Shown: positions 2,724 through 8,298 of the stretch, in pieces
How positions within the stretch are numbered: the stretch's first letter is position 1
Layout: the number at the start of each line of letters is the position of its first letter
Translations under genes and position numbers: made by a program
Origin: a virus
UHGV virus genome: UHGV-0165622
Direction: 5' to 3' (one strand)
DNA: 27,204 nt
The notes under the pieces: model-generated
Told to the model about the DNA's origin: nothing
Database searches by the model: none
What the model saw: the letters and a program-made list of their open reading frames with translations, nothing else

Positions 2724-2846
2724 ATGTGGGTTAAACGACTGGTCAGTCAACTGAAAAAAGCTCAGCCGGACTGCAAATTACCGGAGAAGGCGATGGATTA
2801 CCTGAAACGAAATGGACTGATAAGCGTGGAGGATGTTTTACGATGA
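2724..2846 (+). CDS. Small hypothetical protein (40 aa, not in ORF track)
   Basis: Short ORF MWVKRLVSQLKKAQPDCKLPEKAMDYLKRNGLISVEDVLR directly after the Ea22-like stop. Confidence 0.25.
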   Translation: MWVKRLVSQLKKAQPDCKLPEKAMDYLKRNGLISVEDVLR

Positions 2847-2927
2847 ATATTTAGACTAAAGAGTTTGTAACGCTATGTAAGTGATTTTTTCTGGTTTAGA
2901 TATTTATATGTCCGGCCAAATTGAGGT

Positions 2928-3146
2928 GTGTTTAAATGTTATTGCACATTGATTGTAGGGGGAATAATGAAAAACGCATTGCAGTTTTTGTTTGTTGCGT
3001 TCTGGTTGTTCGCATCATGTATGCCCATCATCTTCACAGCAAGGTATATGGAAAAAATTGATGTTTTGATATTAATGTTTGGACATATAAATGCCCTTTT
3101 TTTAGGGGTGTTCATGGCGGTCATGTGCATTGAATACTGGCGGTAA
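2928..3146 (+). CDS. Small hydrophobic (membrane) protein, AT-rich
   Basis: 72-aa ORF with two predicted hydrophobic helices in an AT-rich stretch; true start may be the internal Met (MKNALQF). Confidence 0.3.
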   Translation: MFKCYCTLIVGGIMKNALQFLFVAFWLFASCMPIIFTARYMEKIDVLILMFGHINALFLGVFMAVMCIEYWR

Positions 3147-3229
3147 ATACAGCGAACGCCATTGGTTTAGTTGGATATTTACTGTGCCGGACAAAAACGG
3201 TTTGCGGGGAAATCTTAGTTAAGTAGAAT

Positions 3230-3408
3230 GACTGCGGGTGCTTGAGGCTATCTGTCTCAGGCATGAACACCAAAAGGCAGATAGAGAAAAGCCCCAGTTA
3301 ACATTACGCGTCCTGCAAGACGCTTAACATTAATCTGAGGCCATATCTATGCGACACATAGAGATTAGCCTCTTACGGACCGAAAGGTCAAGGAGAAGCA
3401 GGCTATGA
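3230..3408 (+). promoter_or_regulatory. hok mRNA leader with mok-like upstream ORF (3349-3408) and probable antisense Sok target region
   Basis: 20-codon upstream ORF whose TGA overlaps the hok ATG (ctATGAag); inverted repeats in the leader (tatctgtctc / gcagatagag) fit hok/sok fold-back regulation. Confidence 0.4.
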
Positions 3409-3560
3409 AGCAGCAAAAGGCGATGTTAATCGCCCTGATCGTCATCTGTTTAACCGTCATAGTGACGGCACTGGTAACGAGGAAAGACCTCTGCGAGGTA
3501 CGAATCCGAACCGGCCAGACGGAGGTCGCTGTCTTCACAGCTTACGAACCTGAGGAGTAA
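3405..3560 (+). CDS. hokD: Hok/Gef family type I toxin (small membrane-depolarising peptide)
   Basis: 51 aa, MKQQKAMLIALIVICLTVIVTALVTRKDLCEVRIRTGQTEVAVFTAYEPEE; matches the Hok/Gef signature and is closest to HokD/RelF and HokC from memory; below the 60-aa cutoff of the ORF track. Confidence 0.85.
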   Translation: MKQQKAMLIALIVICLTVIVTALVTRKDLCEVRIRTGQTEVAVFTAYEPEE

Positions 3561-3628
3561 GAGACCCGGCGGGGGAGTAATCTCCCGCCACCTCTGATGT
3601 GCCAGGCATCCTCAACGCACCCGCACTT

Positions 3629-3650
3629 AACCCGCTTCGGCGGGTTTTTG
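3629..3650 (+). terminator. Rho-independent terminator after hok
   Basis: Hairpin cccgc-ttcg-gcggg followed by a T5 run. Confidence 0.7.
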
Positions 3651-3661
3651 CATTAGTCTGG

Positions 3662-3690
3662 TTGACAAAAATAGAAAAATGCGAAAATAT
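3662..3690 (+). promoter_or_regulatory. Putative sigma70 promoter for the 3726-5460 cassette
   Basis: Perfect -35 TTGACA at 3662-3667, 17-nt spacer, weak -10-like AAATAT; AT-rich context. Confidence 0.3.
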
Positions 3691-3725
3691 GTGGTTTACG
3701 AATTCTAAAAAAAGCGAAACTTGAA

Positions 3726-4376
3726 ATGAATGAAAATCAGTTAGCTCCTTGTTGGGAATTTCAACCTTATCTTGCTGAAAACTATGTTCGCCACTTGTTG
3801 GCGGAGATCGCTAACGTACTTGAGCAGCTGTACTATCATAAGCACGCATTAGACAGCAACTGGTCTGAAGGTGTAAGGGCTTATGATTGGGTCAGAAATC
3901 ATCTTATTCAAAATGAAGATGCAATTCCTGGCCTTGAGATGATTTCCAAGGGGTTGGACTATGTAGTTGCTTTAAATAAAGTTCCGCTACAATTTACCAA
4001 AGATTGCATTAATAACCCCAAAAAGAAACATCGTCTGCGTCGAAATAAAGTAGAGTATGAGCAGCTCTCATTGTTTGGTGATGTTGAGGCTGAGCAAGAT
4101 ATTACATGGCGAGTCATAGCTGAGCCTTTTTTATCCGAAGAGGGCGATGGTGAATTAGAGTCCACACTGCCTCGTTGGGAGGTAGCTCTTGTTGGATTTA
4201 ATACTTATGGTGCTCAGATTAGTATAGTTTCTCATCAATCTACAGCATCGATGCCGCTTATGCCTCTTGATTATAACACACTCCCTGACGAAGCGGAGAT
4301 TAATAAGGTGCCTCTTCGTCGGCGTACGAAGGATAAAGATTTGGATGTGAGCAGTGATGGAACATCAGGTGAATAA
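3726..4376 (+). CDS. Unknown 216-aa protein, upstream partner of the HTH/Zn-peptidase gene (candidate toxin or effector)
   Basis: ORF with no motif I recognise; low-GC codon usage; 3' end overlaps the downstream gene by about 20 nt. Confidence 0.7.
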   Translation: MNENQLAPCWEFQPYLAENYVRHLLAEIANVLEQLYYHKHALDSNWSEGVRAYDWVRNHLIQNEDAIPGLEMISKGLDYVVALNKVPLQFTKDCINNPKKKHRLRRNKVEYEQLSLFGDVEAEQDITWRVIAEPFLSEEGDGELESTLPRWEVALVGFNTYGAQISIVSHQSTASMPLMPLDYNTLPDEAEINKVPLRRRTKDKDLDVSSDGTSGE

Positions 4377-5460
4377 CTTCACTGAGTATCGGGGTGATAA
4401 GCTCAAACTAGCGAGAATGGCTGTTGGGCTTTCTTGTGAAGAGTTAGCCGAAAAAATTGGCAAGACAAAGCAATTCGTTAGCAAACTGGAGAAGGGGTGC
4501 AGGCCATCGGAGCAATGTCTTGAGTTAATATCTTCAGCGCTTATGATTAAGTCCAGTTTTCTTTTTACTGAACGAAAATACGCTCTGGAAAGTGATGTCT
4601 GCCATTTTCGGAGTAAGAAGTCCAGGACTCAAACGCTGACTAATAGTGTATTGGCCAGGGCTGAGATTCTTAATATTATAATTTCTGCTGTTGAAGGTGA
4701 AATCGAATTTCCTGACGTTAACATACCGGAGCACCCAGGGGCTGAATTACTTACTCCGAATGATATTGAGCGAGTGGCAGAAGATTGTCGCCGTGCCTGG
4801 AATTTAGGTCTTGGCCCTATATCATCAATGGTTAAATTGGCGGAGAGTTTAGGGGTAATCGTTGCGCATGTTACGGGAGTCGATGATCGTGTTGATGCTT
4901 TTACTGTTCACAATAACAGGCCTGTTATCATCAGGAACAATGTTAAAAAAAGCATATGTAGATTTCGCTCTGATTTAGGTCATGAATTAGGGCATTTAGT
5001 AATGCATGAGGGCATAACGACAGGTGATAAACTTACGGAATCACAAGCCGATCACTTTTCGAGCGCCTTATTAGTTCCCAGGTTATCTTTCATTAAAGAA
5101 TTTCCACGAATACGAGGTAAGCAATTCGACTGGAATGCTCTGGTTGAATTTAAACTTAGATGGAAAATCAGCCTTAAAATGTGTATTTATCGAGCCAGCG
5201 CATTAGGCTTATTGACCCAGGAACAGGCAAGAACTGGCTATATGCATCTTAATTCCAGAGGGTATACGAGAGTTGAACCTGGTGATGAACTTTTGCGCCC
5301 TGAAGAACCCGGCATGCTGGCCGAGGCGATTGAAATGCTGGATGATGCAACCTGGCTAAGAATTCTTATGAAAACTGGCTTGAGCCAAGATTTAATTCGT
5401 GAGTTGTTCTCCATCAACAGACCTATTACAAATCCAAGAAATATTTTCCAGATTGTTTGA
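4354..5460 (+). CDS. HTH_XRE plus ImmA/IrrE-family (COG2856, M78-like) zinc metallopeptidase fusion protein
   Basis: N-terminal XRE helix-turn-helix (LSCEELAEKIGKTKQFVSKLEKGCRPS); HEXXH zinc motif HELGH at about 4979-4993 with downstream Glu; 368 aa; GTG/ATG start overlapping the upstream gene. Confidence 0.85.
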   Translation: MMEHQVNNFTEYRGDKLKLARMAVGLSCEELAEKIGKTKQFVSKLEKGCRPSEQCLELISSALMIKSSFLFTERKYALESDVCHFRSKKSRTQTLTNSVLARAEILNIIISAVEGEIEFPDVNIPEHPGAELLTPNDIERVAEDCRRAWNLGLGPISSMVKLAESLGVIVAHVTGVDDRVDAFTVHNNRPVIIRNNVKKSICRFRSDLGHELGHLVMHEGITTGDKLTESQADHFSSALLVPRLSFIKEFPRIRGKQFDWNALVEFKLRWKISLKMCIYRASALGLLTQEQARTGYMHLNSRGYTRVEPGDELLRPEEPGMLAEAIEMLDDATWLRILMKTGLSQDLIRELFSINRPITNPRNIFQIV

Positions 5461-5464
5461 GTAT

Positions 5465-5486
5465 ACCCGCTTCGGCGGGTTTTTTG
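5465..5486 (+). terminator. Rho-independent terminator after the cassette
   Basis: Same hairpin as at 3629-3650 (acccgcttcggcggg) followed by a T6 run. Confidence 0.7.
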
Positions 5487-5646
5487 TTTTTATTTTCAAC
5501 GTGTTTGAAGTTTTGGACGGTGCCAGAATAGAATCAAAAATACTTAAGTAGCGCGCAGGGATAAGAGGGATGGTCCCTTAAAGGGGAGAGCTAATTATCC
5601 GGAAGGATTCTGATGATGAACATCGAAGAACTGCGTAAAATTTTTT

Positions 5647-5865
5647 GTGAAGATGGCCTTCTATGCTGTGTGCGTTGAAAATGGAAATCTTGTTAGTCAT
5701 TACCGCATTATGTGTTTGCGAAAGAATGGGGCTGCGTTAATTAATTTTGTGGATGCTCGGGTCACGGACGGATTTATCTTGCGCGACGGTGAGTTTGTCA
5801 CTTCATTACAGGTATTGAAAGAGATCGGAATAAAAGCAGGCTTTTCAGCTTTTGCAGAAGAATAA
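5647..5865 (+). CDS. Rem-like small prophage protein (possibly frameshifted at its N-terminus)
   Basis: 72-aa ORF; an upstream ATG at 5613 in another frame (MMNIEELRKIF...) would join in-frame if the T6 run at 5640-5646 were T5, giving an 83-aa product. Confidence 0.5.
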   Translation: MKMAFYAVCVENGNLVSHYRIMCLRKNGAALINFVDARVTDGFILRDGEFVTSLQVLKEIGIKAGFSAFAEE

Positions 5866-5931
5866 ACTCATCTACAATCTTGCGCGGGGCTGAACTCCCG
5901 CTGAGTAACACCGTGCCACCGGAGAAAACCG

Positions 5932-6210
5932 ATGGCACGCAACGCAAAATATTACAAACATGATAATTCGACCGTTCTTGCCCACACGCACGAGCGGTAT
6001 TCTCACGCATTTAAGTCAGACTGGTACCAGCATCCCCCATGCACTGAAGAACAGGCCGAATGGCTGATTCATAACTACCGCAGACGTGGATATGAGTTTA
6101 GGAAAGCCCTCACCCTCGATTATCGTCACTGGATAATCTACGTCAGACTCCCTTATTCCGAACGCCCACCGCGTCCGTCCCGCACATTCCAGCAACGCAT
6201 CTGGAGGTAA
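5932..6210 (+). CDS. Hypothetical basic protein
   Basis: 92-aa ORF ending 1 nt before the GTG start of the DUF968 gene. Confidence 0.45.
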   Translation: MARNAKYYKHDNSTVLAHTHERYSHAFKSDWYQHPPCTEEQAEWLIHNYRRRGYEFRKALTLDYRHWIIYVRLPYSERPPRPSRTFQQRIWR

Positions 6211-6211
6211 C

Positions 6212-7261
6212 GTGCGGGTATTACTTCGACCTGTTCTGGTACCGGAACTCGGGCTGGTGATCGTTAAGCCGGGCCGTGAATCCATGCCGGTATTCCACAA
6301 TACCCGGGTACTGGTGGAGCCGGAACCGAAAAGCATGCGTAATCTGCCGTCCGGGGTCGTTCCTGCCGTTCGCCAGCCGCTGGCGGAGGATAAATCATTA
6401 CTGCCATTTTTCAGCGACGAACGAGTGATTCGTGCTGCTGGTGGCGCTGGCGCATTGTCTGACTGGTTACTGCGCCATGTTAAATCCTGCCAGTGGCCAC
6501 ACGGCGATTATCACCACAGTGAAACCGTCATTCACCGTTATGGTACCGGCGCAATGGTGTTGTGCTGGCACTGCGACAACCAGCTGCGTGACCAGACATC
6601 CGAATCACTCGAGCAACTTGCTCATCAAAACCTGTCAGCATGGATGATTGACGTCATCGGTCACGCAATAAGCGGTACGCAGGAGCGTGAATTATCTCTG
6701 GCTGAATTATCCTGGTGGGCGGTCCGCAATCAGGTGGCGGACGCGCTACCGGAAGTGGTATTACGTCGTTCGCTGGGGTTGCGTGCGGAAAAAATCCGCT
6801 CAATGTACCGTGAAAGCGACATCGTACCGGGAGAGCAGACCGCCACCAGCATACTGAAACAGCGCACAAAAAATATTGCGCCGCTGCCTCACGCCCACCA
6901 GCAACAGAACCCACCACAGGAAAAGACGGTGGTCAGCATTGCCGTTGATCCTGAGTCTCCGGAATCTTTCATGAAACGACCTAAACGTCGCCGCTGGGTT
7001 AACGAGAAATACAAACGCTGGGTGAAGACACAGCCGTGTGCGTGTTGTGGTAAGCCAGCCGACGATCCCCATCACCTGATTGGTCATGGTCAGGGCGGAA
7101 TGGGGACAAAATCTCACGATATTTTCACGCTACCGCTGTGTCGGGAGCATCACAACGAGCTTCATGCGGATCCTCTGGCGTTCGAACAAAAGCATGGTTC
7201 TCAGGTTGATTTAATTTTTCGTTTTCTTGATCACGCCTTTGCAACTGGCGTGCTTGGGTAA
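6212..7261 (+). CDS. DUF968-family prophage protein (YdfU-like) with C-terminal HNH-like Cys/His motif
   Basis: 349 aa; C-terminus CACCGKPADDPHHLIGHGQGG...LCREHHNELH resembles an HNH motif; position upstream of rusA as in Qin-type prophages. Confidence 0.7.
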   Translation: MRVLLRPVLVPELGLVIVKPGRESMPVFHNTRVLVEPEPKSMRNLPSGVVPAVRQPLAEDKSLLPFFSDERVIRAAGGAGALSDWLLRHVKSCQWPHGDYHHSETVIHRYGTGAMVLCWHCDNQLRDQTSESLEQLAHQNLSAWMIDVIGHAISGTQERELSLAELSWWAVRNQVADALPEVVLRRSLGLRAEKIRSMYRESDIVPGEQTATSILKQRTKNIAPLPHAHQQQNPPQEKTVVSIAVDPESPESFMKRPKRRRWVNEKYKRWVKTQPCACCGKPADDPHHLIGHGQGGMGTKSHDIFTLPLCREHHNELHADPLAFEQKHGSQVDLIFRFLDHAFATGVLG

Positions 7262-7273
7262 AAGAGGTGACTG

Positions 7274-7633
7274 ATGCTCATAGATTTGGTTTTACCTTAC
7301 CCGCCGACGGTGAACACTTACTGGCGACGCCGTGGCAGCACATATTTTATCTCGGAGGAGGGAAAGCGTTATCGCCGGGCTGTGGCGCTTATTGTTCGCC
7401 AGCAGCGGCTGAAATTAAGCCTGTCCGGAAGGCTGGCGATAAAGGTGATTGCAGAGCCACCGGATAAGCGTCGTCGCGACCTGGACAATATCCTGAAAGC
7501 ACCGCTGGATGCGCTGACGCATGCGGGAGTGTTAATGGACGATGAGCAGTTTGATGAAATCAATATTGTAGGTGGTCAGCCAGTATCTGGTGGACGGCTG
7601 GGTGTGAAGATTTACAAAATTGAGAGTGAGTGA
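7274..7633 (+). CDS. rusA: RusA-family Holliday junction resolvase
   Basis: 119 aa; conserved RusA residues (PPTVNTYW, RRRDLDN, DALT..GV..DD) and AAAGAGG Shine-Dalgarno. Confidence 0.85.
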   Translation: MLIDLVLPYPPTVNTYWRRRGSTYFISEEGKRYRRAVALIVRQQRLKLSLSGRLAIKVIAEPPDKRRRDLDNILKAPLDALTHAGVLMDDEQFDEINIVGGQPVSGGRLGVKIYKIESE

Positions 7634-8196
7634 GCGTAAATATGATATATCCGGAAATTACAGGCAAAAGCGGCGAGCATTTACGTCTAAAAACGCTGGA
7701 AGCAGTCTGGATCCAGGGGAAATTACGGATGTGGGGGCGGTGGTCGTATATTGGCGGCGGTAAGACGGGAAATATGTTCAACCAATTACTGACCTCTAAA
7801 AAGCTGACAAAAACGGCAATTAACGAGGCGCTCCGGAGGATGAAAAAAGCTGGTCTGGACAAACCTGAACTTGAGGCTTTTTTGCGGGATATGATCAACG
7901 GCAATCAAAAAAGCTGGCTGGCACATTGTACCGATTCAGAGGCGTTAATAATCGACAGGGTTATTGGTGAAGTCCTGGCAGGCTATCCCGGGCTGCTCAA
8001 TGTCCTGAGTCAGCGTTATGTGGGGCGGGGGATGACTAAGCGCAAAATGGCTGAACTGCTGAATGATGCACACCCGGAATGGAGTTTAAGAACCTGTGAA
8101 AGACGCATTGAGCATTGGCTAAAGGTGGCAGAATTTATTTTGTACAAACCAATGGTTATGGCTTTTGGTATAGAGAAAAAAGTTATTGCTTTTTGA
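7630..8196 (+). CDS. Putative late-gene antiterminator Q-like protein
   Basis: 188-aa ORF in the canonical Q position (after rusA, before the tR'-like terminator and lysis region); loose similarity to phage-21/DLP12-type Q from memory. Confidence 0.55.
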   Translation: MSVNMIYPEITGKSGEHLRLKTLEAVWIQGKLRMWGRWSYIGGGKTGNMFNQLLTSKKLTKTAINEALRRMKKAGLDKPELEAFLRDMINGNQKSWLAHCTDSEALIIDRVIGEVLAGYPGLLNVLSQRYVGRGMTKRKMAELLNDAHPEWSLRTCERRIEHWLKVAEFILYKPMVMAFGIEKKVIAF

Positions 8197-8272: not shown

Positions 8273-8298
8273 GAGCCCGCTTTTTGCGGGTTTTTTTA
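8273..8298 (+). terminator. tR'-like intrinsic terminator downstream of Q
   Basis: Hairpin agcccgc-ttttt-gcggg followed by a T7 run, placed as lambda tR' is. Confidence 0.55.

Follow-up and report, generated by a model that had tools for sequence, protein, structure and literature searches.

The DNA studied here is a 27,204-nt stretch of the virus genome UHGV-0165622, read on one strand 5' to 3' and called the window below. It belongs to a temperate lambdoid prophage of Escherichia coli and carries, after a hokD-type hok gene, a predicted two-gene toxin-antitoxin (TA) cassette of the RosmerTA family (rmrT and rmrA) that lies between two identical 20-nt terminator hairpins, T1 and T2, which are the subject of this analysis.

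Comparison with described systems

The closest counterparts are the stem-loop shuffling of T4-type phages, treated below, and the lambdoid morons, reportedly described by Juhala et al. in 2000 and Hendrix et al. in 2000. Shared with the morons are one or two extra genes placed between genes that are adjacent in relatives, a downstream intrinsic terminator, an atypical base composition and expected expression from the prophage; morons also have an own upstream promoter, for which the window offers a candidate. By its anatomy the locus can be classed as a lambdoid moron, and it illustrates neatly a known kind of phage mosaicism, not a new system; what sets it apart is that the same 20-nt hairpin stands on both sides and forms the exact joint for at least five alternative cargos, a pattern in the sequences that points to homology-guided rather than purely random joining.

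Defence hotspots of prophages and satellites, such as the P2/P4 hotspots that Rousset et al. reportedly analysed in 2022, also have a fixed position between conserved phage genes and alternative defence or TA cargos depending on the strain. However, the left bound of our locus is a terminator hairpin, beyond core genes alone, and the cargos bring a second copy of it.

In the T4-type phages RB49 and phi1, recombination between promoter-early stem-loops (PeSLs) has been proposed to insert or delete open reading frames (ORFs), and mini-circles were detected (PMC2839356). PeSLs are conserved over ~100 bp, promoter included, and number roughly 50 per lytic T4-type genome (PMC2839356). A regulatory stem-loop on either side of a variable ORF, single where the ORF is absent, is common to both situations; the element of the window, in contrast, is a 20-nt terminator present as two copies per 27 kb in a temperate lambdoid prophage, with a candidate promoter on one side only, and beyond the terminator a shared GGTTGACAAA is found only among RosmerTA variants. 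The locus thus has neither the ~100-bp conservation nor the many copies of PeSLs.

With regard to its genes, RosmerTA is a family of phage-defence TA systems whose antitoxin, an ImmA-type protease that often has a helix-turn-helix (HTH), is paired with diverse toxins (PMC10440598). The cassette has the layout of the RmrT/RmrA systems of that study, a variable toxin upstream and an antitoxin with HTH and ImmA/IrrE-type metallopeptidase downstream (PMC10440598), and nothing unusual was detected in its proteins. Likewise, hok is typical of hok/sok type I loci (hokD/relF of prophage Qin, hokW of 933W) and does not differ from them in itself, although here its terminator T1 forms the left edge of a variable slot.

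The hairpin pair

The sequence ACCCGCTTCGGCGGGTTTTT matches the window exactly twice, in both cases on the plus strand, and no third copy was found there even at 3 mismatches:

3630 to 3649, plus strand: T1, predicted intrinsic terminator of the hok mRNA (ACCCGC-TTCG-GCGGGT and a T-run), where the cassette is joined on its left; relatives without the cassette have this copy alone
5465 to 5484, plus strand: T2, predicted intrinsic terminator closing the rmrTA operon, right joint of the cassette, with a T-run one T longer than that of T1

Identity between both copies covers exactly 20 nt with zero extension on either side, their starts being 1835 nt apart. Two matches were obtained in 0/100 dinucleotide shuffles; a random-sequence null is, however, the wrong one for this pair, the 20-mer being a very common phage terminator. 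T1 and T2 were both scored as terminator-like (stem of 6-7 bp with 5 GC pairs, TTCG loop, 5-6 T), with folding energies of -15.1 kcal/mol (z -3.4) and -10.9 kcal/mol (z -2.9), respectively. T1 lies 70 nt 3' of the hok stop codon and T2 starts 4 nt 3' of that of rmrA, everything being on the plus strand. An earlier note, made from the sequence alone, had described identical terminator hairpins around a two-gene block; both copies were indeed found and both fold as intrinsic terminators, while the ranges that it gave to the repeat (3629-3650 and 5465-5486) are 1-2 nt too wide. A scan of positions 2800-6300 with Rfam gave the sok model as its sole match and, in the hairpin region, only a chance-level isrK (E 0.8), hence no known RNA family explains the hairpin.

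Our preferred reading, to which we give a probability of about 60%, is that T1 and T2 are Rho-independent terminators bracketing a 1.8-kb RosmerTA moron in the variable slot that follows hokD in a lambdoid prophage, the moron having been joined by crossovers confined to the hairpin and spread later by recombination in its flanks.

Cassette-free relatives and direction of the event

Relatives were fetched from complete Escherichia coli genomes, phage records and IMG/VR contigs; about 60 loci (identified by L numbers) were examined, and the tallies refer to fetched loci having hok and the conserved 92-aa gene found at the right edge of the slot. A single hairpin was present in 16/16 hok loci without a plus-strand cargo, and two hairpins in every locus with such a cargo, counting the degenerate first copy of L010. 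The empty site is made of the left flank of T1, one hairpin and the right flank of T2, with zero bases left over or missing, and in rem-bearing cassette-free loci (e.g. L001, E. coli AH19F006, phage HannyBb) the hairpin leads straight into the rem-like gene (...cacttaACCCGCTTCGGCGGGTTTTTgtttttattttcaacg...). This is the arrangement that the earlier note had foreseen for relatives lacking the cassette; two separated copies, which it had named as the contrary outcome, occurred in none of the 16.

The nearest backbone, L181 (E. coli Ecol_745), follows the window at 99.4% identity as far as position 3648, at the end of T1, and its homology resumes at 5915 with 98.3% identity; it has neither cassette nor rem, the segment replaced relative to it being 3649-5914. 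Orders of adjacent elements seen when the cassette is absent are hok, hairpin and rem (L001, L002 and others) and hok, hairpin and the 92-aa gene (L009, L181).

The direction of the event is not readable from the empty sites, because a deletion between T1 and T2 yields the same pattern as an insertion. The insertion by recombination within a terminator that the earlier note proposed thus agrees with the exact joints at the hairpin and with the single-hairpin empty sites, yet deletion between the copies fits these equally. T-run lengths do not discriminate, since the pattern seen, always 6 T in T2 and 5 T in T1 and the empty sites, suits insertion and deletion alike.

A history in which the two-hairpin state is the older one would run as follows: an AT-rich block of rmrTA, terminator and rem replaced the sequence after hok, and the direct succession of hok, hairpin and rem arose later by deletion between the hairpins, through slippage or short-repeat recombination. 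The base composition is in its favour. While the cassette has 41.5% GC, with 35-38% GC at third codon positions (GC3), against ~50-54% GC and ~55% GC3 in its neighbours and 50.3% GC in the whole window, the rem region past T2 (rem and its leader) has practically the same GC content, 41.6%. The AT-rich two-gene block of the earlier note is real in so far as the cassette differs from its neighbours, but the AT-richness runs past T2 into rem, and the notion that the AT-rich block is the cassette had to be discarded. In addition, cassette and rem together make up the segment replaced relative to L181, and a deletion between 20-nt direct repeats would give exactly the observed empty site. Nevertheless, we hold this history to be improbable, given that hok, hairpin and rem without the cassette occur much more widely and in more diverse forms (the region is matched at least in part by 4968 genomes, whereas the cassette occurs in only 237 of 5426 complete E. 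coli genomes, 224 of these records being at least 99% identical), which suggests a recent gain, and that the same cassette also occurs without rem (L158-161). It differs from our preferred reading in direction only, because recombination confined to the hairpin is still required.

Alternative cargos at the same joints

The interval after hok holds different contents in different loci:

Nothing (L009, L181): one hairpin
rem (L001, L002): one hairpin
rmrTA-1, the cassette of the window (window and about 35 loci): two hairpins
rmrTA-2, with RmrA 43% and RmrT 24% identical (L006): two hairpins
rmrTA-3, with RmrA 32% identical and an unrelated toxin (L007, phage Tritos): two hairpins
59-aa ORF and Fic/Doc pair (L121, L112): two hairpins
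130-aa ORF (L010): two hairpins, the first degenerate
RelE/ParE and HTH pair, minus strand (L005, 1263-1971): one hairpin (ACCTGC variant)

Plus-strand cargos are thus of at least five kinds, all of them between two hairpins that are each at most 3 mismatches from the 20-mer, and they are joined to right flanks of three unrelated types (rem-type, 92-aa-gene-type and L097-type). In each case the right flank starts at the first base past the T-run, just as in the matching empty site (L121 with L097, L010 with L009, the window with L001). Moreover, rmrTA-1 itself was found with two right flanks, that of the window and that of L158-161. By sequence, then, cargo and flank appear to assort independently with the hairpin as their precise junction, and this is most simply explained by crossovers confined to the hairpin, because random joining would have to strike one nucleotide again and again. 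In L158-161 the hairpin has a TACG loop and the TTTTG run of the right-flank type, which fits a crossover in the 3' stem and a point mutation equally.

These joints also bear on an explanation by convergence, in which an ordinary moron, ending in its own hairpin of the commonest UUCG-loop kind, came in by illegitimate recombination and insertions that damaged the hok terminator were removed by selection, hairpin homology having no mechanistic part. This would need an insertion point exactly at the end of the T-run, and an insert ending at its own T-run, independently for at least four to five cargos and three right flanks, and no spacer remnants or duplications were seen. Furthermore, the loops of the second hairpins of slot cargos are T(T/A)CG or CTCG, as in hok, unlike those of RosmerTA homologues outside the hok context, which are mostly of 5-6 nt. 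On the other side, the second hairpin comes only with plus-strand cargos, as is expected for a cargo's own terminator, five hairpins with a CCCGC/GCGGG stem occur in the window, and the hairpin is in general use among phages and RosmerTA homologues, as detailed in the next section. On balance we regard convergence as unlikely, though it is the alternative to our preferred reading that we take most seriously.

The single ACCTGC-variant hairpin of L005 may be a bidirectional terminator for convergent genes. A lead from L012 and L115, in which the sequence 5' of the hairpin resembled the 3' end of the Tritos rmrA, was dropped because the upstream gene is a different, 468-aa ORF. Scanning of genome contigs with RmrA gave one locus only, in Escherichia albertii, with the arrangement unchanged.

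The hairpin as a generic terminator

A number of observations weigh against crossovers confined to the hairpin, and several of them speak for convergence. Exact copies of the 20-mer in IMG/VR number at least 124; among the matches listed, 18 stand after hok and 3 after rmrA, and the remaining 103 represent at least 91 flank contexts unrelated to one another, in which a ribosome-binding site or a promoter often comes next. With a hairpin so ubiquitous in phages, two identical copies do not by themselves make a strong case for duplication.

RosmerTA homologues outside the hok context, at ~80% or 68% nucleotide identity, begin their homology to the window at 3627-3659; in the ~80% group it reaches the stop codon of rmrA (5458-5460) and, in the case of L169, T2, while in the 68% group the nucleotide match fades by ~5290. 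Nearly all of them end in a terminator of the form ACCCGC-loop-GCGGGTTTTT, the exception being L174/L175 with a different stem, and the loops are TATAT, CATTG, TGCTT, TGCAT, TTCAT, CAATGT and, once, TTCG. The identity of T1 and T2 could thus be partly convergent, or reflect a shared class of terminator rather than a copy made at insertion. For this reason, and in view of the many unrelated contexts of the 20-mer, the duplication of the terminator asserted by the earlier note is not demonstrated, and its proviso about a common hairpin found throughout the genome turned out half true: the hairpin is common among phages, with no further copy in the window.

The same findings have a second side. 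Because the RosmerTA family brings a hairpin of the same class, the cassette would be able to recombine with the hok terminator. A point against our reading is that 4 nt separate the end of rmrA from T2 in the window but 16-20 nt separate rmrA from its terminator in the homologues outside the hok context, so that T2 is not simply the terminator inherited within the family.

In L162 the cassette has a terminator distinct from the resident one and 167 nt away from it, a C5-methyltransferase 3'-end remnant lying between the two; this favours convergence, and hairpin-guided joining is accordingly not the sole route. The minus-strand RelE/ParE and HTH cargo of L005 has a single hairpin, the empty sites could be deletions between T1 and T2, and termination as well as promoter activity are predictions from sequence. 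Finally, 20 bp is at or below the length needed for efficient RecA-type recombination.

In support of our reading, a hairpin also occurs upstream of the cassette in other contexts, exactly 10 nt 5' of GGTTGACAAAA as in the window (L167, L178, L169, L170/171); it is clearly of the ACCCGC/GCGG type in L167 and L178 alone, that of L169 being degenerate and that of L170/171 having another stem. Likewise, L169 (3275-5146) has a ~80% nucleotide-identical rmrTA that is flanked by the tape-measure gene and a tail gene resembling lambda M and ends in the exact 20-mer, and in L066 (4666-5469, minus strand) and L045 the slot between tape-measure gene and M holds a DUF6694 lipoprotein moron with the exact 20-mer before M. 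A wider and rather doubtful conjecture is that the ACCCGC-UUCG-GCGGG-U5 hairpin serves as a portable anchor by which defence and TA cassettes move among slots of temperate enterobacterial phages (after hok, between tape-measure gene and M, and in the post-replication nin region) through short-homology crossovers or mini-circles.

As a separate observation, in another phage context the cargo terminator is followed by C5 DNA methyltransferase 3'-end sequence (..CGNAVPPPFAEALVRANLPE..), either a remnant or a duplicate; it lies just past the cassette terminator in L162, L168 and L178, and is also found in L048 (reverse, ~1000-2600) and L092. In L048 the 5' half of the hairpin, ACCCGCTGCGGC, is repeated where this remnant begins, a repeat that hints at microhomology joining between hairpin and coding sequence.

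Recent spread of the cassette

Among the E. coli records with the cassette, 224 are at least 99% identical to the window; in E. coli ABU 83972 the identity of the cassette is 100%. In L003 and L004 (DEC5B, GN4738) the cassette is 99.9-100% identical, whereas identity drops to 61-89% in the adjacent genes (rem, the 92-aa gene, DUF968). We had expected the breakpoints of recent transfer to fall at the hairpin, an expectation that was ruled out: the near-identical block extends from inside hok (~3462) to 5561, 77 nt beyond T2, which is a further point against a part of the hairpin in the events that are most easily seen. These comparisons indicate that the module has recently passed from one prophage to another, diverged one through ordinary homologous recombination in the longer flanks, and that the joints at the hairpin date from older events. 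In NZ_CP069459.1 (E. coli FDAARGOS_1249) an otherwise identical cassette is in two pieces, and an IS5-family transposase is annotated under the match.

Proposed course of events

In our preferred reading, T1 would end the hok mRNA and keep hok read-through out of the TA operon, and the cassette would be transcribed in the lysogen from its own sigma-70-type promoter and leader, with the HTH of RmrA probably autoregulating at two GCGAAA repeats. T2 would stop rmrTA transcription before rem, rusA and the Q-like gene at 7630-8196, where read-through could be harmful. Through T1, the promoter and T2, the cassette would thus be an autonomous and insulated unit in the lysogen.

A crossover at the hairpin is conceivable since the RosmerTA terminator and the hok terminator share the ACCCGC/GCGGGT stem. 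A cassette bringing its own hairpin, perhaps in circular form, may have integrated at the resident one; alternatively, a flank may have been exchanged at the hairpin, or the event may have been the reverse deletion. Phage Rad52-type recombinases tolerate short homology and are plausible agents of such joining. Short-homology recombination at the hairpin might have passed through a circle, as proposed for PeSLs (PMC2839356). Once formed, the block of hok, hairpin, rmrTA and hairpin would then have moved between E. coli prophages via homologous recombination in the longer flanks.

We also considered whether the 20-nt repeat arose as a target-site duplication or is recognised as a hairpin by a dedicated mobile-element machinery acting in trans, for instance a hairpin-targeting HUH transposase, a recombinase like those of integrons or a retroelement that seeks terminators. 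Direct repeats do stand at both ends of a discrete insert, and several mobile-element systems use hairpin-shaped sites; however, 20 nt is far longer than usual target duplications and the hairpin is far shorter than attC sites. Genes for a transposase, an integrase or a reverse transcriptase are absent from the cassette, as are terminal inverted repeats, and the loops and T-runs of the hairpin vary between copies, with no fixed crossover point. Such a machinery is in our view very improbable. A transposon or miniature inverted-repeat transposable element was dropped, as a repeat search of the cassette ends showed nothing beyond the 20-mer and only rmrT and rmrA are encoded; an integron gene cassette was ruled out, the hairpin being a 16-nt perfect stem-loop with no integrase nearby and no attC-like site.

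Content of the cassette

The features between the hairpins are the following:

3650 to 3725, on to the rmrT ATG at 3726-3728, plus strand: 10-nt linker and candidate rmrTA promoter and leader, with GGTTGACAAAA (-35), candidate -10 TGcGAAAAT/AAATAT and two GCGAAA repeats
3726 to 4376, plus strand: rmrT, RosmerTA toxin candidate of 216 aa (PADLOC RmrT PDLC03929, E 4.6e-25)
4354 to 5460, plus strand: rmrA, RosmerTA antitoxin of 368 aa (PADLOC RmrA PDLC03943, E 6e-105 over 340 residues)

The product of rmrT matched no Pfam family. RmrA has an N-terminal XRE-type HTH (PF01381, HTH_3, E 5e-7) and an ImmA/IrrE Peptidase_M78 domain (PF06114, E 6e-11), with a HELGH motif read from the translation, and the two genes overlap by 23 nt. 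By these matches the two ORFs between the hairpins are assigned to RosmerTA, a system of an already known type.

The leader (3660-3728, 69 nt) starts ten bases past T1 and reads GGTTGACAAAA...GCGAAAATAT...GGTTTAC...AAAAAGCGAAACTTGAAATG. Its length is constant in 12 loci with an identity of 85-94%, while the coding regions of these loci are 68-80% identical, and the TTGACA -35 is perfect and invariant across the 12 diverged loci. A scan with a consensus promoter did not call the leader; we consider a promoter of the cassette's own likely from this conservation. The leader also has invariant blocks, with the two GCGAAA direct repeats 35 nt apart, and no canonical Shine-Dalgarno sequence precedes the rmrT ATG. 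The repeats are candidate operators for the HTH of RmrA, or else the leader may be structured.

Neighbouring genes

Upstream and downstream of the hairpin pair the following features were annotated:

3236 to 3407, plus strand: hok/sok regulatory region (Rfam RF01794 'sok' model, 106.7 bits, E 1.7e-24)
3405 to 3560, plus strand: hokD-type Hok toxin gene, 51 aa (PF01848 Hok/gef, E 1.2e-23; annotated as hokD in related E. coli records)
5613 to 5865, plus strand: rem-like gene, by alignment to rem of L001 and to L003, with a frameshift from a 1-nt insertion near 5660
5932 to 6210, plus strand: conserved 92-aa gene, right edge of the variable slot, just after homology to the nearest backbone resumes (5915)
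7630 to 8196, plus strand: Q-like antiterminator gene, ~2.1 kb downstream (PF06576 DUF1133, E 6e-106; PF06530 Phage_antitermQ, E 8e-8)

The extra T of rem near 5660 is seen in GGCCTTCTATG, where rem of L001 and L003 has GGCC-TCTATG; the frameshift may mark either a pseudogene or a sequencing error. Three further hairpins with a CCCGC...GCGGG stem and a T-run, having other loops, are found at window positions 8276 (plus strand), 20693 (plus strand) and 8742 (minus strand); that at 8276 sits directly 3' of the Q-like gene and may be a tR'-like site.

On the other side, 5' of hok/sok, positions 2900-3235 are unrelated to 358-1317 of L003: the window has a 72-aa hydrophobic ORF (2928-3146) and E. 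coli DEC5B a SIR2-family gene. This is a second variable slot, on the other side of hok, and possibly a defence-related one.

Significance

The interval after the hokD terminator is a defence/TA hotspot in E. coli lambdoid prophages, and it is modestly interesting that alternative defence and TA cargos are repeatedly joined there precisely at a ubiquitous 20-nt terminator. The case is relevant to a long-standing debate on phage mosaicism, in which the joints are put down either to short conserved sequences at module boundaries or to joining at random with selection afterwards. If the crossovers were truly confined to a generic 20-nt terminator, the locus would be a simple natural example of defence-cassette swapping that spares the neighbouring genes; and should the hairpin prove to be a portable anchor, it would be the lambdoid counterpart of the PeSL shuffling of T4-type phages and a concrete case of the 'linker sequence' model of Susskind and Botstein.

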